From: a virus
Lineage: Duplodnaviria; Heunggongvirae; Uroviricota; Caudoviricetes
Strand: one strand, 5' to 3'
IMG/VR virus record: IMGVR_UViG_2690316285_000009
Length of the DNA stretch: 39,278 bases
Shown here piece after piece: positions 2,388 through 34,886 of the stretch (position 1 is the first letter of the stretch; each line of letters opens with the position of its first letter). The notes beneath the pieces are model-generated. The model made no database searches. It had not been told where the DNA came from and worked only from the letters and a program-made list of their open reading frames with translations. The translations under genes were made by a program, and so were the position numbers.

Positions 2388-4442
2388 TTACGCGTTATTC
2401 ACTTCCACCACGATACTGTCAATCAGTACCGGGTAAGTCGCATTTTTAGTGATATCGGTCACGCGCAACTTGTCTGCCGTAAACGTGCCGACCGGAGACT
2501 GCGACAGCATGAATGGTGTCCCGTCCTTACCATCAATGACCGGCGTCACCTCAATACTGTTGTTACCGGCAAAACGGAAGCCCAGCGTATGCCATTCGTT
2601 ATTAAATGCGCCGAATGACCCCAGCTTCGTGTTCTGCGCCGTGTTTCCTTTGTGATACATCACGTTAAGGTCTGTGGCATCGCTCTGTACGTAGAACGAT
2701 GCCAGCAGGTTATGACCGGCATTTCCTTCCAGAGTAACCCCTTGCGGCAGGGCAGAAACCGGCCAGTACAGCGCCAGTGCGTACTGATTAGCCGTAAGCG
2801 CGCCATCGAGTTTAAAACGACAACTGACAAGACCACCTTTACCCAGCAGGTCCGCACCATTACCAGCATCATGCTCAAGGTACCAGGGGGCTCTTCCTGT
2901 TTCCTTGGTCAGTTTCATTGCCTTACCCCCGCTGGCTCCGGCATCATCCACGATTTGAGCCTTGCCACCTCCGGCAGCCCAACCCTGTGGTGTCAACCGT
3001 CCTTCAGACTCAGATGCCCGGTAAGCAAATAGCGTACTCATCGTCGTGGTGTCTGCGGGTGGCGTGGACGGTTTTGATGGTGTATCAGGTGACGGCTTCT
3101 CATCCGGTGGTGTCACGGTCTGCCCGCGCATCAGTTCAGCCGTGCGCCCTGCATGGAGCATAATAGCTGAGGCCAGACGGTCTGAAATGACGCCCCTGCG
3201 TGCCCATGAGCTGAAATGGCTGTCACGCTGTGTCGAAACAAAACTGCCCTGGGTTCGGGATGCTGCACCGTAATACCCGACAGCCACAATATCCGGGTCT
3301 TCCGCCGGAGCATTCGTTGGCGTGCTCTGTCCATTCTCATCCGTCAGGAACGGTACAAAGAAAATTTTCTGTGCTTCCTTGCCTTTGTAGCCACCGTATA
3401 CTGCCTCATATTTATCGGTGCCAGCGTTTTTCCAGTAATACGTGGTATCACCGCAAATCCACGGCACCGTGGTGGCATTTCCACTCACGCACTGCGCAGC
3501 AAGCGGAGCCTGGTCAGTTCTGAACTGCTGAACCATGGCCGTGAATAAACTATTATGCTGCTGGCTTCCTGAGGCAAGGTCTGCCTCTCCCTGCATCCAG
3601 ACCACAGCCAGAAGTTTGTTTTTCGGGTTTTTCGCCAGCGCGACTTTGGTGCGGCTTACCAGGTCCTGATACAGAGGTTTACCGGCCCCCCAGCGTGAAG
3701 AATCAGCGGAAGCACCGCTGGCCTCACTGAATGAGCCGTCGGCTCCAGTGGTGAATGCTGACCCGCCACGACAACAGGGCACCAGAAGTATCCCGGCATT
3801 CTGTGGGATATAGGGAAGCAGTTTTTTGGCAATATGCAACCCCTGACCGACAGTCCCGTACTGGCCTTTTGCCAGATCAGCTTTCGGGTGGTTTATCCCG
3901 CTCATATCCTGAACATCATGCAGGCAGTGGTCTGCCGGAATGATGTCGTTGTATGTACACGACGTACCGTTGGGCGTTACCGTACTGCGGCGTGCCAGTT
4001 GCTTAATGCGTGGGTCCGGGCGGTCAAACGAATCCGGTAACGGCAGCCCCTCGCCGTAGGCCATGCCATTTGACTGACCCGCGAGAATGACAACAAAGTA
4101 ATATTCCGGCTCTGAACTGCTGCCATTCGTGCTACCGGAAGGCCCGGCGTTATCCGGTGCATTCCAGTCGGAGGGCGTGAGCGTTCCGGCCACGTCAGAT
4201 GTGATTGGAATGATGCCAGTCACGCCTGAACTGGTGATTTCTGCACTGGGATTACCGGATACCGGCATTACCCATAATGGCTCTTTCGTGCTGAAGCGGA
4301 TCACGCAGTCTGCGAAGGTGATCCCCCCTTTATTACCCGAAGGGCGGAAAGGGCTTTCAATAAATGCCACCGTGCCACCGGCAACCTTGACTGAAAACTC
4401 TCCGGGCATGGCGGAGAGCATTTTCCACTTGGAGTCTGACAT
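2388..4442 (-). CDS. Multi-domain SGNH/SASA-family carbohydrate O-acetylesterase (684 aa): N-terminal domain, esterase core, Pro/Thr-rich linker, C-terminal roughly 200-aa domain of unknown type
   Basis: Motifs in the translation: VVILAGQSNGMAYGEG (GQSN catalytic-serine block), VVWMQGEADLASG (QGE block), RDSHFS (D-x-H block) in the order expected for SGNH/SASA esterases; linker PPDEKPSPDTPSKPSTPPADTTT; no N-terminal signal peptide. Confidence 0.7.
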   Translation of the reverse strand: MSDSKWKMLSAMPGEFSVKVAGGTVAFIESPFRPSGNKGGITFADCVIRFSTKEPLWVMPVSGNPSAEITSSGVTGIIPITSDVAGTLTPSDWNAPDNAGPSGSTNGSSSEPEYYFVVILAGQSNGMAYGEGLPLPDSFDRPDPRIKQLARRSTVTPNGTSCTYNDIIPADHCLHDVQDMSGINHPKADLAKGQYGTVGQGLHIAKKLLPYIPQNAGILLVPCCRGGSAFTTGADGSFSEASGASADSSRWGAGKPLYQDLVSRTKVALAKNPKNKLLAVVWMQGEADLASGSQQHNSLFTAMVQQFRTDQAPLAAQCVSGNATTVPWICGDTTYYWKNAGTDKYEAVYGGYKGKEAQKIFFVPFLTDENGQSTPTNAPAEDPDIVAVGYYGAASRTQGSFVSTQRDSHFSSWARRGVISDRLASAIMLHAGRTAELMRGQTVTPPDEKPSPDTPSKPSTPPADTTTMSTLFAYRASESEGRLTPQGWAAGGGKAQIVDDAGASGGKAMKLTKETGRAPWYLEHDAGNGADLLGKGGLVSCRFKLDGALTANQYALALYWPVSALPQGVTLEGNAGHNLLASFYVQSDATDLNVMYHKGNTAQNTKLGSFGAFNNEWHTLGFRFAGNNSIEVTPVIDGKDGTPFMLSQSPVGTFTADKLRVTDITKNATYPVLIDSIVVEVNNA

Positions 4443-4513: not shown

Positions 4514-4547
4514 AATTCAAAAAAGCGTCACGGTACTTTTGGTGACG
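4514..4547 (-). terminator. Rho-independent terminator at the 3-prime end of gin
   Basis: Stem CGTCAC/GTGACG with 10-nt loop followed, on the minus strand, by a 6-T run; the gin stop codon lies inside the stem. Confidence 0.6.
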
Positions 4548-5100
4548 GAGCTGGTGAGGCAGGAAAATAACGATAAAGGGTGGAAAGGCCAATATCAAAT
4601 ATCAGTGCGATTTGTTTACGGGACTCGCCATTAGCCAGCAAACGGGCGATTTGCTCCCGCTCTTTCTCTGTCAGTTTCTGAGGTCTGCCGCCATGACGCC
4701 CCTGAGCACGGGCAGCAGCAAGACCCGCGCGTGTACGTTCAATAATGAGTTCCCGCTCCATTTCCGCCAGCGCGCCCATTATATGGAAAAAGAAACGTCC
4801 CATGGGAGTGGATGTATCAATATTGTCCGTAATGCTGCGGAAGTTAACGCCGCGTTGCCGGAGTTCTTCTGTTAAAAGGACAAGGTGCTGCATACTGCGT
4901 CCAAGGCGATCCAGTTTCCAGACCAGCAGGGTATCCCCTGGCCGGAGTCGCTTTAATGCGCGTTTAAGTCCGGGACGCTCCCTTGTCTTACCGCTTATTC
5001 TGTCTTCGAAAAACAGCTCACATCCTGCACATTCCAGCGCATTTCTTTGTAGCGCCGTATTCTGGTCATTTGTTGACACCCTGATATACCCAATCAGCAT
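4528..5100 (-). CDS. gin: Gin-type serine DNA invertase
   Basis: N-terminus MLIGYIRVSTNDQ with the catalytic serine context typical of Hin/Gin/Cin resolvase-invertases; C-terminal helix-turn-helix; sits next to an invertible segment bounded by gix-like sites. Confidence 0.9.
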   Translation of the reverse strand: MLIGYIRVSTNDQNTALQRNALECAGCELFFEDRISGKTRERPGLKRALKRLRPGDTLLVWKLDRLGRSMQHLVLLTEELRQRGVNFRSITDNIDTSTPMGRFFFHIMGALAEMERELIIERTRAGLAAARAQGRHGGRPQKLTEKEREQIARLLANGESRKQIALIFDIGLSTLYRYFPASPAPSPKVP

Positions 5101-5164
5101 ACGATTTCCTTATTATAAAAAGCCGGAATTGTCGCATGAGGAATAAAACAGAGTTAATCCTGGC

Positions 5165-5192
5165 TTTCCTGAAAACCTCGGTTTACGGGAAA
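5165..5192. other. gix-like recombination site (left)
   Basis: TTCCTGAAAACCTCGGTTTACGGGAAAC closely resembles the phage Mu gix sequence as I recall it (AAACCTCGGTTTAC core); located at the outer edge of the left inverted repeat. Confidence 0.75.
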
Positions 5193-5246
5193 CGGTAAAC
5201 AGGGCGGCGAATGCCCTGCCATCGGACGGCACCGCCGTTGCCGCGA
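5178..5246. repeat. Left copy of a 69-bp perfect inverted repeat flanking the invertible segment
   Basis: 5178-5246 is the exact reverse complement of 6427-6495 (checked base by base). Confidence 0.9.
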
Positions 5247-5539
5247 ATAGACTCGCCACCCCAAGAAATATTAATGGGGTTCCCTTTGACGGGACGCAGG
5301 ACATAAACATCACTTCTGGTATAACACAGCAGGATGCGGATTCCCGATATATCCAGGATATCAGGCTGGGAGCAGAGAACAGGCAGGTAATGTACGGTGG
5401 GGCATATTACTCTGCGTACGGTAATGTTATGGCAGGCCTGCAGATTGACAGTAAAGTTGATGCTTCAAACGATTTTATAGCATTCAGACCCCTGCAAAAA
5501 TTAGTCGGAGGTACATGGATTACGGTATCTCAGTTATAA
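5178..5539 (+). other. Silent alternative tail-fibre C-terminal coding segment (Sv-alt), expressed only after inversion
   Basis: Reading through the left inverted repeat on the plus strand continues the tail-fibre constant-part frame (..[37 protein letters not shown]..) to a TAA at 5537-5539; parallels the active variable part (..[26 protein letters not shown]..). Confidence 0.6.
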
Positions 5540-5590
5540 ATAGTCAGTAAATAATATATTTTAAAACAGATTTATTTCCAGGAGGATTTT

Positions 5591-6112
5591 ATGGAACTAA
5601 AAAATATAACCCGTTATTATCCTGAAAATATGCCATATGGTAATAATGTTCAGTATTTCCAGAGTGAAGATGGTAAGGATTTCTACGAATCCCTGCCATT
5701 ATTCACCAAAAAATATAAACTTTGCATAACACCTGACAGCGGCGTTATCTGCTCAATATCACAGGACGCCTCGGCGCTGTATCCTGCGGGGTTTTCTGTG
5801 GTTGAGGTCGATGAACTCCCTGAAGGCACGGATATTTCAGGAAACTGGAAGTTTGATAATGGCATAATCTCCCGTATTCCGGTTAACTACGCAAGAAAAC
5901 TGGAAGCAATGCGCCAGTCATATCTTAATCAGGCATATGAAAAAATTAATGACTGGAGAACGGAGCTACAACTGGGCACCATCAGCGATGAAGACAGAGC
6001 AGCACTTACCCAATGGATGGCATACATCAGTCAGGTGAAGAAAATGGAACTACCCGCCATTAAAACAGAAGCTGAATTTAACGCCATTAAATGGCCTGAG
6101 CAGCCACAGTAA
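5591..6112 (+). CDS. Tail fibre assembly protein (Tfa / Mu U family), currently antisense to late transcription
   Basis: 173-aa product with the typical Tfa layout and C-terminal ..WPE.P..; CAGGAGG Shine-Dalgarno upstream; lies 50 bp downstream of the silent Sv-alt segment. Confidence 0.85.
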   Translation: MELKNITRYYPENMPYGNNVQYFQSEDGKDFYESLPLFTKKYKLCITPDSGVICSISQDASALYPAGFSVVEVDELPEGTDISGNWKFDNGIISRIPVNYARKLEAMRQSYLNQAYEKINDWRTELQLGTISDEDRAALTQWMAYISQVKKMELPAIKTEAEFNAIKWPEQPQ

Positions 6113-6143
6113 TAAAGAAGGCCGGAAGGCCTTCTGAATATCA

Positions 6144-7025
6144 TTATATACTTGCAGCCGTCACCCATGCTCCATTTAACAGATACTGCAACGGCCGGTA
6201 ATACACGCCGCCGACGTTATCTGCCGTATTCTTACCGACATCCTGTACTTTAATTCCGGTAAGAACATTGCCGCCCCCCAGATTCAGATCCCAGCTTTCC
6301 CATGTTCCGGGCATATGTGCGGTCACCGACCCCAGTCTTATGGCGGTTACTGTTCCTGATGAGATAGTGATATCCTGCGTCCCGTCAAAGGAAACACCAT
6401 TAATTGTGTGGGCATTTGCCAGCCTGTTCGCGGCAACGGCGGTGCCGTCCGATGGCAGGGCATTCGCCGCCCTGTTTACCGTTTCCCGTAAACCGACGTT
6501 ATCGATAAAAGCCCCTTTATCCGGAATGTCTGCGCCGTTCTGCTCCCTGCGCAGGTAACGGTTATCACCTTCGCTTTTGCTGTAAACATCCAGATTATTA
6601 CGGGCGGTTCCCTTATTCTCCAGGTCGGCGAGATTCTGATCCTTCGCCAGGGCATTAACGTCAGCGGGACCAAGACTGTTTTTTGTGGCAAGCGTCCCCA
6701 GACCAAGATAACCACGGGCCAGACGCTGGGCCTCCGCACCGGCATCAGCAATTTCTTTCAGGTTATTTTTCCGGGAAAAGGCATTCGCAGCGATAATGGC
6801 TTTAATGGACAGCGTAAGCTGGTTTAACTGCGCCTTATCCGGCTGAATACTGGCTTCAGCCAGAATATTCAGCAGTTCGGCCTGGAGAATATTCAGCCAG
6901 TCCTGACCAATCCAGCTGATACCTTTTTGTCCGTCACCTTCGGTAAACCAGGTGGTGGTATTACTCTGCGCCGGTGCCAGCGCAGGCATATTCGCCACGC
7001 CGGAATTATTATCAACATGAAACAT
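6144..7025 (-). CDS. Tail fibre protein (Mu S-like); constant N-terminal part 6496-7025, currently expressed variable part 6144-6495 inside the invertible segment
   Basis: N-terminal region with GQDWLN..LNQLT pattern typical of Mu/P2-type fibres; the gene crosses the right inverted repeat. Confidence 0.85.
6427..6495. repeat. Right copy of the 69-bp inverted repeat
   Basis: Exact reverse complement of 5178-5246. Confidence 0.9.
6481..6508. other. gix-like recombination site (right)
   Basis: Reverse complement reads TTATCGATAACGTCGGTTTACGGGAAAC, sharing the GTCGGTTTACGGGAAAC core with the left site. Confidence 0.7.
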
Positions 7026-7585
7026 TAAATAGTCTCCTCTTCATGGCTGTTTGCATAAACGTAAATAAACGTCTGCCATGCAGGCTTATAACGGTTCAGA
7101 ATACATTCCAGCGCACCGCCTTCATAAATACGCAGCGGCGTGAGAATATCATCCAGCACATTCATATTCCGGTAGCCGGTTTCACTGTTAATCGTGACAA
7201 TACTGACCCACTGCGAATCCGGTGAGGGCTGAATGTCAATCTGATAACCAAACTCCGCCGCAAACCGGATATAAAATTCACGGTTCAGCGAGGGCTTCAT
7301 CCGGTATTTATTTCCGGCATAACGCTGTCGCTCCGTGAGGGTGGCTCCGGCCATATCACACTCGGGAAGCCCGAGATAACGCTCCCAGTCTTCCAGCAGC
7401 AGGCGCGACGTGTCAGGGAAACGCTCGGCAAGCAGCTGTTTACCCGTCCAGGATACACGCGCTGTCGAATGACTGAGGCCCAGACATAATGATGCCAGTA
7501 CGGATGACGGACGCTTGTCCCATGCCAGCCCGTCAGGCAGTAACTGCAACAGGGCGCGCTGATGCGGGGTCAGGGTTACAGCCAT
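7025..7585 (-). CDS. Tail protein, Mu gp48-like (baseplate/fibre-attachment region)
   Basis: Position between baseplate J-like gene and tail fibre; size 186 aa; start/stop overlap with neighbours. Confidence 0.65.
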
Positions 7586-12179: not shown

Positions 12180-14288
12180 TCACATCCAGGCCATGCTGTG
12201 CGGTATCATCCACATNNNNNNNNNNNNNNNNNCCACATCAATACTGCGCGCCCGCCAGCCTTCAGGGGCCACAAGCTCCACCCGTGCGGCGGTTTTCGCG
12301 GTGGCCTGTCCGCCGTTTTCGTCACTGCTGCCACGCAGTTTCTGCCAGGCCTGCGTCAGCCAGCCCCCCNNNNNNNNNNNNNNNNNNNNNNNNNNNNNNN
12401 NNNNNNNNNNNNNNNNNNNNNNNNNNNNNNNNNNNNNNNNNNNNNNNNNNNNNNNNNNNNNNNNNNNNNNNNNNNNNNNNNNNNNNNNNNNNNNNNNNNN
12501 NNNNNNNNNNNNNNNNNNNNNNNNNNNNNNNNNNNNNNNNNNNNNNNNNNNNNNNNNNNNNNNNNNNNNNNNNNNNNNNNNNNNNNNNNNNNNNNNNNNN
12601 NNNNNNNNNNNNNNNNNNNNNNNNNNNNNNCCGGCACCACGGAACAGCCCGGCAAAACGCCCCAGCCCCATGCGGTTTCCGGCCGCCGTTAGCAGACCAC
12701 CGGCACGGCTCATCATACGACCGAAGAAGCCCTGTTTACCGGCACTCTCCGCCAGTTGCTCACCGGCAGTCACGACGGTCGTGACACCCCGTCCACGTCC
12801 GGGGCCGCGTTTTTTACGGCCGCGCACGGTTTTGCCGTCACCGCTGACCACCACATCCCCGCCACCTGAGGCCAGGCCACCCGCAGGCCAGTTGGTGACC
12901 AGCACGGGCTGAACGGCAGCCGGATTTACCCCGGTAAGGAAATTCAGGAACCGGCCAGCGCGTCCGGGCTGCGTTCCCGGTACAGTGGTCTGCGGTTTGC
13001 GGAAGGGCGACGTCAGCACGGAGGTCATCGCCATGCCATAGCGTAAGGGGGTTGCGCCGAGACGTAATGCCCCCGTCCCCGCAAACCTGAGCACCTTCAG
13101 CGCACGGGAGGCGAGATACATATACATCAGGTACTTTGCGGCGGTCTGCGCACCCTGACCAATACGATCCAGTGCATCGCCATAACCGGCGTCGCGCAGT
13201 GCCTGAAGCGTTTCCCTGACTTTCTGAATGGCCCGGTAAAAGCCGGTTGCAGCGTCTCTGGCATACTCGAATCCCTGATTCAGGGCTGAGGCCGTCTGTG
13301 TGGCCAGCTTATCCTGTAAGCCGCTTTTCTGTGCCGCATCAGCATAATCCAGAAAGCCTTTCAGGCTCTTTTTCAGGCTGTCAAACGGTCCCTTTGCCAT
13401 CACCTCGCGGGCAAATCCGTCCCAGACATCGCCCATCATGGACGTCATTCCCGTCCAGGAATTCATGGCGTTTTTCTGGGCACCTTTTGCCTGTTCGGCC
13501 ATCACCTGAAATAACAGGCGAATGCTGTCCGGTCCCAGTTTTCCTTTCTCGCCTTTCTCACGGATGATCTTCTGGTTTACACCCAGCTTATCGGCCAGCA
13601 ACTGGTAAACGTTAATCCCGTATCCGGTCAGAATATTGGCGTCCGCTGCCTGGATACTCTGGCGGGCAAACATCTGTTTGAGTTGCAGGGACGCACCCTG
13701 TGCATCTGACAGTGACCAGCCGTGATAGCCGCCCTGATCCTGAAGCATGGTAATAAAGCGACGGGCTTCCCTGTCACTCATACCGAACCCGCGACTGGAG
13801 GCGTATTCCTGCATAACCCCCGCCAGCCCCCAGGTGGTGTCTTTGGCGTTCTGTACCGCCCAGGCTTTCACTGCTTCCGTTTTTGCCGTATCGCCATGAT
13901 TAATGGCGTTGAGACGCAGAATATAGTTCTCCATCTCTGCGGCCGGGCGGATAAAGGCTTTATTAAACCCGTAGACCGCAGCCCCTCCCGCCAGCATCCC
14001 GTAAAGGTTGCTTATCCGCCCGATGGTGCCGGTAATGCTGCCCTGAAGGCGGTCAAAATCTGACGTCACCGTGCGGATACTGCCACGAACACCGGCAAGC
14101 GTTCGCTGCATACGGGAGCCGACAAGTTCTGTCTCCTGACCGGCACGACGTGCTGCATTTCCAAGACCACCCAGCCCCGTCCTGCCGGAACGGGAGAATG
14201 CCCCCAGCTCCTGTGACCACTGGCGGGATTTGGCAGAAATATTGCCGAGTAAATCGACAATCAGGGAGGCTTTCAGGTTTTTTGCCAT
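12180..14288 (-). CDS. Tail tape measure protein (interrupted by N-runs at 12216-12232 and 12370-12630)
   Basis: 702-aa Gly/Ala-rich product with long predicted helical N-terminal part and Gly-rich C-terminus; position between chaperone-like gene and N. Confidence 0.75.
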   Translation of the reverse strand: MAKNLKASLIVDLLGNISAKSRQWSQELGAFSRSGRTGLGGLGNAARRAGQETELVGSRMQRTLAGVRGSIRTVTSDFDRLQGSITGTIGRISNLYGMLAGGAAVYGFNKAFIRPAAEMENYILRLNAINHGDTAKTEAVKAWAVQNAKDTTWGLAGVMQEYASSRGFGMSDREARRFITMLQDQGGYHGWSLSDAQGASLQLKQMFARQSIQAADANILTGYGINVYQLLADKLGVNQKIIREKGEKGKLGPDSIRLLFQVMAEQAKGAQKNAMNSWTGMTSMMGDVWDGFAREVMAKGPFDSLKKSLKGFLDYADAAQKSGLQDKLATQTASALNQGFEYARDAATGFYRAIQKVRETLQALRDAGYGDALDRIGQGAQTAAKYLMYMYLASRALKVLRFAGTGALRLGATPLRYGMAMTSVLTSPFRKPQTTVPGTQPGRAGRFLNFLTGVNPAAVQPVLVTNWPAGGLASGGGDVVVSGDGKTVRGRKKRGPGRGRGVTTVVTAGEQLAESAGKQGFFGRMMSRAGGLLTAAGNRMGLGRFAGLFRGAXXXXXXXXXXXXXXXXXXXXXXXXXXXXXXXXXXXXXXXXXXXXXXXXXXXXXXXXXXXXXXXXXXXXXXXXXXXXXXXXXXXXXXXXGGWLTQAWQKLRGSSDENGGQATAKTAARVELVAPEGWRARSIDVXXXXXXMWMIPHSMAWM

Positions 14289-16783: not shown

Positions 16784-17094
16784 CAGGACGTCCCCTTGTC
16801 TGATGCTGCGGGTTTTTCAGTCGCGGGTTTTTCAGTCGCAGGTTTTTCTGCTGCCGCTCCCGCGGGTTTTCCGGCGGCATCAGTCGTTGCAGACGCTGCT
16901 GCCGGNNNNNNNNNNNNNNNNNNNNCCGGTGCTGCTTCAGCCGCTTTTTCCACCACAATGACGTCCCCGTCATTAAGACGGCGGCACCAGAACGGGGTGA
17001 AGGGTTTTTCCTCTCCCTCCTGCGCCAGCGGTTTCATGGTGTCCGGATCGCGGATCAGGCATCCCGGCGCGGGTTTGATAAAAATGGTTGTCAT
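16783..17094 (-). CDS. Small tail-region protein with C-terminal EKPAT tandem repeats (interrupted by N-run 16906-16925)
   Basis: 15-bp tandem DNA repeat at 16810-16855 encoding ..EKPATEKPATEKPA.. Confidence 0.5.
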   Translation of the reverse strand: MTTIFIKPAPGCLIRDPDTMKPLAQEGEEKPFTPFWCRRLNDGDVIVVEKAAEAAPXXXXXXXPAAASATTDAAGKPAGAAAEKPATEKPATEKPAASDKGTS

Positions 17095-18470: not shown

Positions 18471-19418
18471 TTACAGATAATCCGCGACAACCAGCTCCAG
18501 CTTGCCCTTCATCTCGTTAGAGACGGTGGTGTTACCGTCCGCGAACAGCTCGCGCTCCAGCAGCTGCACCGCCTGTTTTTCCAGCGAGGTGGGGACAACA
18601 ATATGGGTGGGTTTGATGCCGAGTTTGCGGCCACCGTCAGCCTTAAAGTCACGCATGGCTGACCAGCCGTGCCACAGCGCATCCAGCGTCAGCGGTGACT
18701 GCATCATGTAGGCCATCTGCCAGAAGCCGTAGCCCACATTGCGACGGGCGGAAGCACCGAACACAAACTCGTTATCAGTAAACGCACGGCCTTCATCGAC
18801 TTTTGTCTGGGCAACCAGTTCGGCCTTGCGGCGATCCTGATAAATCAGCGGTTTTACCGCGCGGGAGCAGTCAAGCAGATACCAGGCCGGGCCGCTGTAA
18901 TCCGCCTGTGCACCGACAGAGCCGGTTTTTGCCACAAACATATTGCTGACCATCTGTGCATCACCGGAGCCATCCACTTTGGGGTAAACAGGGTGTTCGG
19001 TATCAAAGAAGTTCTGGCCGTCATAGCAGGCCGCATTCAGACCATCACGCAGTGCAGCAAAGACCAGTTCATCCGGTTGTGCCGCCGCAGCGCGCCCCAT
19101 CTCCTGGAACAACGGGGAGTAGATGCCAAGATTGTCGTCTTCAAAGTCATCGCGGCTAATGGCAACGGTGCCTTCAAAGGTTTTGTTCACGATGGCGTAG
19201 CCATAGGCTTTCATCTTCTCGATGACGCGGGAGCCGATCCACTCACGGAACTGCGGGAACTGCCCCAGCCAGCCGTAGGTGTTGGATTTCGACGTGGACG
19301 GTACGGTCATCGCAATTTTCTGGTACTGAGACGGAGCCATGGACATCCCGGCCTGAAAATCAGAACGGTAGCCCGTCATCAGGGCGGTGATCATCGCCGG
19401 TGTGATCGGGGTAGGCAT
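18471..19418 (-). CDS. Major head (capsid) protein, Mu T-like
   Basis: 315-aa product downstream of the I-like protease/scaffold gene; Mu-type head module order. Confidence 0.85.
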   Translation of the reverse strand: MPTPITPAMITALMTGYRSDFQAGMSMAPSQYQKIAMTVPSTSKSNTYGWLGQFPQFREWIGSRVIEKMKAYGYAIVNKTFEGTVAISRDDFEDDNLGIYSPLFQEMGRAAAAQPDELVFAALRDGLNAACYDGQNFFDTEHPVYPKVDGSGDAQMVSNMFVAKTGSVGAQADYSGPAWYLLDCSRAVKPLIYQDRRKAELVAQTKVDEGRAFTDNEFVFGASARRNVGYGFWQMAYMMQSPLTLDALWHGWSAMRDFKADGGRKLGIKPTHIVVPTSLEKQAVQLLERELFADGNTTVSNEMKGKLELVVADYL

Positions 19419-20542
19419 TATTGCATTTCCTCTTTCATTTTCAGGAACTCGGCTTCGGTTTTACCCAGCAGATGGGCGGCGGCGATATCTTCAGCCGACA
19501 GCGCAGCGGTGGCGGTCTTTTTATCCGGCACGGTTACGGTGTCGGTCTGAAGAGTGGTCAGAGCCGCAACCGGCTGGCGGGCGTCAAGCTGTGCAGAAAG
19601 TGCCGCAACACCAATCTGTTGTCCGAGTCCTTCCATGTATCCGCGTTCGCTTTTGAAAATGCGTCCTTCGGACTCGGCCTTATCCAGCAACTGCTCCAGC
19701 GTGGTGCTGCCGTGTTGTGCCGACAACGCGACATATTCGGTACGCAGGGCGTTATACGTCTCAACGGGCACGTATTTCGTCAGATCAATAGTGCCGCCAG
19801 TTGGTGTGCCTTTTGCGGTTTCCAGCTCTGCCGACAGGCTGGCAACCTGCGTTTTCAGGGTGTCGTGCGCATCCGCACGGGTTTTGATCCCGGTAAGGGC
19901 AGACAGCGCCGCCGTGCCCAGTTCCGGTGTAAATTCGTCACCGTCGGCCACGGTCAGACCGAGCGCCGTCAGCAACTGGCGTAATTGCTCATTCATGGAG
20001 GTGTCCTTTAAAGGAGGGTTTAAGGCGTTATAAAGGTCATCCGCCGACAGTGCGGCGACAGGATTCATGCCAGTCAGACCGGGGTCACCGGTAATAGCCA
20101 GCATCCGAAGCTCAACAGGTTCACCGGTGATTTCGTCATAACCAATCACCGGGGAAAACCAGGGAAATTCGTTATTGCGCAGGTGTTCAATGGCCGGAGG
20201 GTTCCAGTCCGGACGCACTTCAAAACCCCGCTCTTCACTGAAGCGGAAGTTTTCCGGTGAGGCCATGACAAAACCGGCAGCCGGTGCCGGATGCCCCTTA
20301 ATCAGGGTCTGGTGGTTGTAGTCAATTTTTACCGGCTGATTGAGCGCCACAACCCGGGATACCATGCGCTCAACGGCCGCATGGTTAATCAGCCAGCCTT
20401 CCGCCGGTTTTTCCGGGCGACCGTCACGGGCCTTTACCCGACCGGCTGGCATGATCTGACACCAGTCACCGTCCCCGTCTGCGGACAGGCTGATGGCATT
20501 CAGAATGGCATAAGCAAGTTTGGGCGTGTTTTTCGTCTTCAT
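19418..20542 (-). CDS. Head maturation protease / scaffold, Mu I-like
   Basis: 374-aa product immediately upstream of the major head gene; preceded by a 180-bp intergenic region consistent with a late promoter. Confidence 0.75.
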   Translation of the reverse strand: MKTKNTPKLAYAILNAISLSADGDGDWCQIMPAGRVKARDGRPEKPAEGWLINHAAVERMVSRVVALNQPVKIDYNHQTLIKGHPAPAAGFVMASPENFRFSEERGFEVRPDWNPPAIEHLRNNEFPWFSPVIGYDEITGEPVELRMLAITGDPGLTGMNPVAALSADDLYNALNPPLKDTSMNEQLRQLLTALGLTVADGDEFTPELGTAALSALTGIKTRADAHDTLKTQVASLSAELETAKGTPTGGTIDLTKYVPVETYNALRTEYVALSAQHGSTTLEQLLDKAESEGRIFKSERGYMEGLGQQIGVAALSAQLDARQPVAALTTLQTDTVTVPDKKTATAALSAEDIAAAHLLGKTEAEFLKMKEEMQ

Positions 20543-28775: not shown

Positions 28776-29198
28776 TCAGAAAAGCCGGGGCTGCGTGCGC
28801 TCCTGATGCAGGCGACGCTGGTTGCGGATAACGGAGTAAATCTGCGTCTCTGACATCTGGTAATGGCGGCGCAGGGTTTCAATTTTTTCGCCCTGGCTCC
28901 AGCGGGAAAAAATTTCATTATTGCGCAGTTCGGTGAAAAGGGATTCACCGACCGGGAGATAATAACCACGCCCGCCCATGTACCCGGCCTGTGCGGCTGC
29001 AACCTTACGGGCAAGCATTCCCGCCTGAGCAGGTTCAATCCCCTGACGGTGCAGTTCAGCACTGATCACATCAACCAGGTCCCGCAGCGTGCCGGGCCAG
29101 TTCTTTTTCAGCTCATCATCAGGAATATCATCCAGACGGTCAATCAGCGCGTGCAGCTGTTCGCTGTCACCAAACATGCTCATCTGTGTTTCAGCCAT
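28776..29198 (-). CDS. Mor/C-family transcriptional activator (single copy)
   Basis: 140-aa product with C-terminal helix-turn-helix; position between the GemA-like gene and the lysis/late genes, as for Mu mor/C. Confidence 0.8.
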   Translation of the reverse strand: MAETQMSMFGDSEQLHALIDRLDDIPDDELKKNWPGTLRDLVDVISAELHRQGIEPAQAGMLARKVAAAQAGYMGGRGYYLPVGESLFTELRNNEIFSRWSQGEKIETLRRHYQMSETQIYSVIRNQRRLHQERTQPRLF

Positions 29199-34622: not shown

Positions 34623-34886
34623 TTAGCTGACTTGTTTCGCACCAACAGAACGGCATATTCCGCTGTAAACTTCTGTCGCACCTTCGCGATCAAGTCCGGC
34701 AGATATCACCATTCGTGTGCGGTCATTAAATTCAAAAAGTAAATCGCCACATTCTTTATTTTCGGCCAGTGAAATCACCTTCACGTTATCGAAATTAACC
34801 AGGTAAAAGCGTCCGTAAATATCAGGAATATTAAATNNNNNNNNNNNNNNNNNNNNNNNNNNNNNNNNNNNNNCCGCCATAATCAC
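34623..34886 (-). CDS. Hypothetical early protein (interrupted by N-run 34837-34873)
   Basis: ORF immediately downstream of B; N-terminal part unreadable. Confidence 0.4.
   Translation of the reverse strand: MIMAXXXXXXXXXXXXXFNIPDIYGRFYLVNFDNVKVISLAENKECGDLLFEFNDRTRMVISAGLDREGATEVYSGICRSVGAKQVS

Follow-up and report, generated by a model that had tools for sequence, protein, structure and literature searches.

A minimal Gin-invertible tail-fibre segment in a Mu-like prophage of E. coli, in which a single tfa gene may serve both fibre forms

The viral record IMGVR_UViG_2690316285_000009 (Caudoviricetes), whose whole stretch of 39,278 nucleotides (nt) is called the window here, carries beside a gin invertase gene a 1.3-kb segment between two gix crossover sites that holds two alternative C-termini of one tail-fibre gene and a single tail-fibre assembly gene, tfa. 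The segment switches the fibre in frame, inverts at gix in natural genomes and keeps its one tfa among its relatives; its tips and tfa are under purifying selection, and tips of both classes are found paired with this clade of Tfa elsewhere. The reading that we favour, with a probability of roughly 60%, is that the two fibre forms share one generalist Tfa, whose transcription does not depend on the late operon. The segment would then be a host-range switch run by active Gin and gix in a Mu-like E. coli prophage, in which Gin recombines the two gix sites inside the fibre gene and joins a constant part of 176 amino acids to one of two short receptor-binding tips, and the single Tfa, encoded between the two tips, would fold both. 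In the flipped orientation tfa would be co-transcribed behind the fibre gene, in the present orientation it would be transcribed from a promoter of its own upstream, and the two convergent transcripts would be separated by the hairpin at 6116-6135. The features of the segment, in the present orientation and numbered from the first base of the window, are given below.

5166-5191: left gix crossover site, 26 bp, TTCCTGAAAACC-TC-GGTTTACGGGAA, centre 5178-5179
5178-5247: left arm of the 70-bp perfect inverted repeat, with a degenerate extension to about 5319
5180-5539, plus strand: silent alternative C-terminus Sv' (tip type C), stop codon at 5537-5539
5540-5590, plus strand: AT-rich 51-nt spacer, with an AGGAGG ribosome-binding site before tfa
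5591-6112, plus strand: tfa, tail-fibre assembly gene, 173 amino acids, Caudo_TAP PF02413
6116-6135, minus strand: GC-rich hairpin, terminator-like on the minus strand and followed by TTATTACTGT
6144-6494, minus strand: expressed variable C-terminus Sv (tip type A), from the list of open reading frames (ORFs)
6144-7025, minus strand: fibre ORF, 293 amino acids, crossing the right gix
6427-6496: right arm of the 70-bp perfect inverted repeat
6483-6508: right gix crossover site, 26 bp, TTCCCGTAAACC-GA-CGTTATCGATAA, centre 6495-6496
6497-7025, minus strand: constant N-terminal fibre part Sc; residues 1-198 match Mu S 1-191 (E = 1e-45)

An earlier note on this DNA had described a segment of minimal size, invertible by Gin, that holds two alternative C-termini of the fibre and one tfa, and all of these structural details hold; the perfect inverted repeat with Mu-like gix sites that it reported is also real, but the repeat is 70 bp long and not 69 bp. 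In a repeat search the inverted arms were found at 5171-5256 and 6418-6503 (86 nt, 94% complementary) and extended as 5270-5319 and 6355-6404 at 82% complementarity, and the arms are still 82% alike by about 5319 and 6355 because both encode the same fibre repeat. The central dinucleotides of the two gix sites, TC and GA, are inverted relative to each other, and the inner halves of the sites are identical whereas the outer halves differ. Both sites are near-identical to the sequence at the two annotated boundaries of the Mu G segment, including the inner GGTTTACrGGAAACGGTAAACAGGGC. The crossover falls inside the fibre ORF, so that one N-terminus can be followed by either of two in-frame C-termini. 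When the segment was inverted in silico, the constant part of 176 amino acids joined Sv' in frame to give a fibre of 296 amino acids, as against the present 293, which ended at 5539 and was followed by tfa on the same strand; an 891-nt ORF, equal in size to this flipped fibre, is annotated in the flipped strain NCCP 13983. The variable tips are 113 or 116 amino acids long. Tip A and tip C are 35% identical; tip A is homologous to the tips of Mu S' (PDB 8JU3), SfMu, P1, P2 and POP15, and tip C to the Mu S tip (PDB 5YVQ_A, E = 2e-6). The homology of the two tips extends to the receptor-binding ends of Mu S and S', P2 H, P1 S and SfMu, and both are of the Mu S / P2 H class.

The product of tfa matches PF02413 (E = 5e-19, 69 bits against a cut-off of 22) and is homologous to Mu U (PDB 5yvq_B, E = 4e-16). 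In the present orientation tfa is antisense to late transcription and convergent with the fibre gene, and it is downstream and co-oriented, after the 51-nt spacer, only when the segment is flipped, as the earlier note had proposed and the in silico inversion bears out. It is the sole tfa-like sequence found by tblastn in the window. The window contains runs of N at 12216-12232, 12370-12630, 16906-16925 and 34837-34873 (335 bases in total), and a second tfa hidden in them was considered and rejected: the runs are far from the segment, and since the longest is 261 nt they cannot hide a gene of 520 nt. In near-identical, N-free complete genomes there is one annotated tfa in the 8.7-kb stretches inspected. 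Two of the N runs, near 12.2-12.6 kb, lie within an ORF of 702 amino acids (12180-14288) that, from its size and position, is probably the tape-measure gene.

When the locus was compared in E. coli strains FORC_029 (L102) and NCCP 13983 (L002), the two 8,701-nt stretches differed at 819 positions as deposited and at 0 positions once the equivalent of 5178-6496 was reverse-complemented. The two loci are thus identical but for an exact flip at gix, which shows that the switch is active. One base inside the repeat is polymorphic between these two loci and goes along with the segment when it flips, and the exchange therefore takes place within the gix site. The two genome records differ in length by one base and look like one clone in two switch states. 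Both orientations are found in public E. coli genomes, and the objection that only one might ever be observed falls away; in fact the segment is present twice in each of DLI.5a, TOE17 and AST46, once in either orientation. In complete E. coli genomes, where near-identical prophages with at least 80% of a 2.7-kb query matched were counted, 20 records matched the present orientation and 6 the in silico-flipped query, and among viral contigs showing gin 16 were tfa-convergent and 4 flipped, counts that come from related, non-independent assemblies showing the majority state of a culture and from two collections that may overlap. A diverged O157-type remnant beside dusA (L005 and L016) also occurs in both orientations. 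This remnant is cut off within the GP46 gene by an integrase-bearing element and its gin is intact, which indicates that inversion continues in a defective prophage.

Exactly one tfa is present in every relative inspected, where it lies tail-to-tail with one tip and head-to-tail with the other, and the 31 Mu-like viral contigs that a search with the Tfa recovered are all among them. From those with 99% identical DNA, the relatives extend to some whose tfa is only about 61% identical. Their tips fall into five types, all with the C-terminal motif YYRPxQ...W, and are placed as follows.

tfa-distal (tail-to-tail with tfa): tip type A (window) or B
tfa-proximal (upstream of tfa): tip type C (window), D or E

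The distal/proximal combinations seen are A/C, A/E, B/D and B/E. The spacer between Sv' and tfa is 51-121 nt in this one-tfa family versus about 2-21 nt in fixed fibre-tfa pairs. The stop codons of Sv and tfa are 31 nt apart in the window with the GC-rich hairpin between them, and a hairpin of different stem sequence is kept at the matching place in diverged relatives. The one-tfa relatives were found in E. coli and in viral contigs and make up a diverged and modular prophage family. When species-representative genomes were scanned twice with the Tfa no relative was found, and a megablast search of a phage collection found no cultured phage with near-identical DNA; relatives in that collection occur only in two Shiga toxin (Stx) phage records, as an inserted Mu-like element in a region that is unannotated. 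Erwinia phage ENT90 (NC_019932) was tried as a further one-tfa example and rejected: an invertase match was found, but the phage has two tfa genes, and their order is odd. That order (L100/L101) is fibre gene, convergent tfa, a second tfa on the fibre strand and an opposite-strand fibre C-terminal fragment that adjoins a short invertase ORF, and it may reflect several crossover sites or the state of the assembly.

The earlier note had concluded that one fibre form apparently has no chaperone. One way in which this could be so is that the present orientation yields a fibre without a chaperone, either as an on/off switch or as a crippled relic of a symmetric Mu-type segment that has lost one tfa, and the particles would then be fibre-less or poorly infective. 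In its favour, no tfa promoter is detectable in the present orientation, and tips of this kind elsewhere directly precede a co-oriented tfa. However, the ratio of nonsynonymous to synonymous polymorphism (pN/pS) is 0.16-0.27 across all five tip types, and the tfa-distal tips A and B, which are the ones that would be left without a chaperone, are as constrained as the others or more so (0.16-0.18, the lowest). With purifying selection on all tip types neither fibre form looks like a relic. The present orientation is moreover the commoner one, and the layout is kept among relatives down to those whose tfa is only about 61% identical.

A lineage in which the switch is locked bears on the same question. 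Ten loci (L003, L018, L019, L031 and L035-L040), from mouse, human and viral-contig sources and with tip A or B, share one deletion junction that joins GGACAGGCCAAT to ACGATAACCGC. The deletion is the equivalent of about 4590-5480 of the window and runs from the 3' end of gin across almost the whole of Sv'; with gin gone, tfa is locked convergent to the fibre gene. In these loci the leftover piece of Sv' has acquired indels, and tfa is present as 8 distinct intact alleles with ratios of nonsynonymous to synonymous substitution (dN/dS) of 0.10-0.23, although this diversity may consist of recombination imports and not of changes accumulated after locking. The persistence of a gin-deleted, locked lineage with several intact tip and tfa alleles is not what is expected if the convergent state lacks a chaperone. 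We consider that explanation unlikely. The claim that one form has no chaperone is probably wrong, both because the tfa-distal tip is under purifying selection, belongs to the commoner form and is kept in gin-deleted lineages with an intact tfa, and because its tip class directly precedes tfa elsewhere.

This last point comes from phages and prophages with a fixed fibre gene. An annotated tfa directly follows the fibre gene in POP15, PBES02, SfMu, Mu, Fels-2 and 186, and in phage 19-1-2 and Rac-SA53 an ORF without a tfa label does so; by tblastn the ORF of Rac-SA53 is a 49%-identical homologue of the Tfa. We assembled a set of 50 fixed fibre-tfa pairs from viral contigs and Rac-SA53, and in 48 of the 50 the stop codon of a B-like or D-like tip precedes the tfa match by about 9-21 nt. 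Of the partner tips, 15 are B-like (66-73% identity to B; 14 viral contigs and Rac-SA53) and 34 D-like (34-43% identity to D). The tfa-distal tips A and B, which seem to be orphans in the window and its relatives, are thus of just the kind that is accompanied elsewhere by a Tfa closely related to this one. Whatever tip types it travels with in the one-tfa family, Tfa has a highly conserved N-terminal half, and the most diverged alleles, at about 61% identity, differ mainly in the C-terminal half. In the fixed pairs this N-terminal half is 64-69% identical when the partner is B-like and 59-70% when it is D-like, and as these ranges overlap it is not sorted by tip class. It is the counterpart of the N-terminal domain by which Mu Tfa binds the fibre tip, as stated in PMC9608196, which cites North et al. 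2019 for it. The evidence that this clade of Tfa is a generalist chaperone is indirect but consistent, and that one Tfa would fold both tips is what the pairing data suggest.

Another explanation for the type-A/B fibre is that it does not use its own tfa, and either folds unaided or borrows the Tfa of another E. coli prophage. Some Tfa proteins are interchangeable, the Tfa of lambda for gp38 of T4 being an example, E. coli genomes usually hold several tfa genes, and in the state in question tfa is antisense and no promoter for it was found. In 15 fixed pairs, however, a B-like tip lies directly before a close homologue of this Tfa, and the tfa of the locked lineage is intact and under purifying selection without any co-oriented fibre to serve. 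As for borrowing, it would be precarious for a mobile phage to depend on a helper prophage. We find it improbable that the fibre forgoes its own tfa, and return to the shared Tfa as the reading that fits these pairs.

It could also be that, while the phage transposes replicatively, a minority of its genome copies in the cell invert and supply Tfa for those in the present orientation. Such a supply would be helped by the active Gin and by the amplification of Mu-type phages to many copies, whereas inversion of the Mu G segment is slow and mixed copies would give mixed fibre trimers. Moreover, the gin-deleted locked lineage still keeps its tfa, and since gin is deleted there flipped copies cannot be the source of Tfa in that lineage. 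This makes supply from flipped copies very unlikely.

If Tfa is shared, tfa should be expressed when it is convergent with the fibre gene, and several points here weigh against our reading. On the tfa strand, scans of the region before tfa gave no match to the sigma-70 consensus, either in the window or in an O157-type relative, and the tfa promoter that had been proposed at 5540-5590 is undetectable by consensus scans. In one gin-less locus a sigma-70 match spans the deletion junction, but it is no better than chance and was rejected. A late promoter before tfa was rejected as well. Its candidate motif, TYCCGCAAA-N22/23-TAnnCT, occurs exactly three times in the window, against 0.06 in shuffled sequence for a motif that was derived from these same sites. 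The motif starts, all intergenic and all on the minus strand, which is the late strand, are as follows.

28771, minus strand: after the gene of the Mor/C family
20584, minus strand: before the gene at 19418-20542
4512, minus strand: between gin and the esterase gene

The three sites precede the lysis, head and esterase genes and are candidate late promoters, and the motif resembles the CCCGCA boxes of Mu Plys and PI. The match before tfa, at 5492, has two mismatches, is one of 47 such in the window and is no more than chance would give, and in the relatives no match to the motif was found upstream of tfa. Three classes of tfa upstream region can be told apart, and they share no obvious element. 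A further point is that Tfa proteins are usually described as specific for their tips by way of the N-terminal domain. To these must be added the limits stated above on the orientation counts and on the tfa diversity of the locked lineage.

Since the promoter scans found none, the argument for a tfa promoter comes from comparative data. In 15 class-2 relatives, some of them locked and others with gin, a stretch of about 60 nt before tfa is near-invariant whereas fourfold-degenerate sites in tfa differ by 28%; this constraint belongs to class 2, and the spacer of the window is of a different class, which again tells against carrying the result over to the window. The constraint is one of the points in favour of tfa expression in the convergent state; the others are that this state is the commoner one, that the locked lineage keeps tfa intact while its piece of Sv' gathers indels, that the spacer before tfa is long, and that a hairpin is kept between tfa and Sv. 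A small ORF in the conserved region was considered as a cause of the conservation and rejected: the variable positions show no third-codon bias, and a small ORF is therefore probably not the cause of the conservation. The conserved non-coding region, about 95 nt upstream of tfa (L008, L006, L007, L003 and others), contains the short inverted repeats CTGAAAATA-TGCG-TTATTTCAG and TTGCCTGTATATGGCrA, and in the same relatives there is an invariant TATCAT about 25 nt before the tfa ATG; the upstream region of the window is different and shorter.

Taken one step further, it may be that Tfa has been uncoupled from the fibre operon, with a promoter that works in both orientations and a Tfa that folds two tips (five across the family); if so, the specificity of Tfa for tips of this class would be far looser than has been supposed. 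Or the commoner fibre form may assemble without any phage Tfa. We hold these readings to be doubtful. According to PMC9608196 the Tfa of Mu remains part of the virion, where it has a share in recognising the receptor, and on that basis a Tfa-free form would mean that inversion toggles both the tip and a Tfa subunit.

On all criteria that could be tested the segment belongs with the Gin/gix fibre switches like the G segment of Mu, D108 and SfMu. The fibre gene comes after a gp48-like gene and gin lies downstream in the late direction, Gin is about three-quarters identical to that of Mu, gix and the inner repeat are nearly the same, and the constant fibre part, the tips (S/S') and Tfa (U/U') are homologous. 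Its content differs from the canonical one in four respects: there is one tfa, the variable parts are very short, the spacer that precedes tfa is long, and additional genes lie between gin and mom. At 1.3 kb the segment is smaller than that of Mu (3 kb), its variable parts are 113-116 versus about 320-335 amino acids, it has one tfa versus two, its Sv'-tfa spacer is 51 nt versus 2 nt and its perfect repeat is 70 bp, and an esterase/DUF6645 gene and two small DUF genes lie between gin and com/mom. The symmetric S-U / S'-U' order of Mu, with a tfa behind each fibre end, is not found here, as the earlier note had pointed out.

The same contrast holds for the other known switches. In the C segment of P1 (Cin) and the P segment of e14 (Pin) a serine invertase likewise flips alternative tail-fibre C-termini, and the tip of P1 shares 52% identity with tip A; these segments have one tfa per fibre end, the repeats of P1 are about 0.6 kb, and a P1-type record gave two tfa matches. 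In p15B, Min, an invertase of the Gin family, shuffles fibre C-termini with several crossover sites and many cassettes. The P2-like Fels-2 and SEN8 have an invertase beside alternative gpH-type tips and gpG-type Tfa, but Fels-2 has two convergent tfa genes, one per tip. The fixed pairs of Rac-SA53-like and P2-like prophages have the closest Tfa outside the family (49-62% identity), and differ in that all but two contigs show no invertase match and a single tip, with tfa within about 21 nt on the same strand. To our knowledge, each fibre end is paired with its own chaperone in every Gin-type switch that has been described. In full-text searches of the literature no description of a one-tfa invertible segment was found, although older work on P1, p15B or e14 in subscription journals may hold detail.

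The comparison with e14 raises one more explanation, that the inversion mainly serves the host. There is a precedent in that PinQ inversion of the e14 P segment gives StfE2, a chimeric fibre protein that blocks T2 adsorption (PMC12529663). Here, however, the prophage is Mu-like and apparently complete, the fibre gene comes last in its tail operon, and there is no sign that this gene is expressed in the lysogen, which makes service to the host extremely unlikely, and a switch that serves the phage with one shared Tfa is still the reading that we prefer.

Fibre switches of the Gin type are the standard example of programmed variation in host range, and what is described here is a useful minimal system and not a new principle. 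The version seen here occurs naturally, is widespread and is pared down to tips of about 115 amino acids and one chaperone; its family is common in E. coli, including Shiga-toxin-producing strains. It offers a clean system for asking how specific Tfa is and whether a chaperone can be shared, and this specificity matters for the engineering of phage and tailocin host range by tip swapping. It would also mean that a gene which has to be expressed in either orientation can have its place within an invertible segment.

The window is a Mu-like prophage in reverse, with com/mom at its left end. The assignment to Mu-like phages rests on the presence of a Mu-type late region (Mor/C, gp46-48 baseplate genes, S fibre, gin and com/mom), and in near-identical relatives RefSeq annotates the baseplate J/gp47, GP46 and V genes just beyond gp48. 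The neighbouring genes are listed below.

162-1094: Mom, Pfam match
1771-2025: DUF826 gene, after the SASA/DUF6645 gene
2061-2255: DUF1378 gene, after the SASA/DUF6645 gene
2388-4442, minus strand: protein of 684 amino acids with a SASA (sialate O-acetylesterase-type) domain and a C-terminal DUF6645, between gin and com/mom
4528-5100, minus strand: gin, serine DNA invertase, 190 amino acids, Resolvase and HTH_7
7025-7585: Mu gp48-like gene, Phage_Mu_Gp48 Pfam match, followed by the fibre gene
28776-29198: activator gene of the Mor/C family, Pfam Mor, a C homologue at 40% identity

The product of gin matches Resolvase (PF00239, E = 2e-51) and HTH_7 (PF02796, E = 5e-15) and aligns over its full length with Mu Gin, the three-quarters identity being judged by eye, with the N-terminal RVSTNDQ motif included. 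In Gin-type systems a recombinational enhancer that depends on Fis lies near the 5' end of the invertase gene. Here the alignment with Mu gin covers the first 260 nt of gin, with a well-conserved block around AAACGCGC-TTAAAGCG; Fis sites were not identified. Finally, the SASA/DUF6645 protein encoded next to gin may be a surface-glycan-modifying protein or a second receptor-binding protein.

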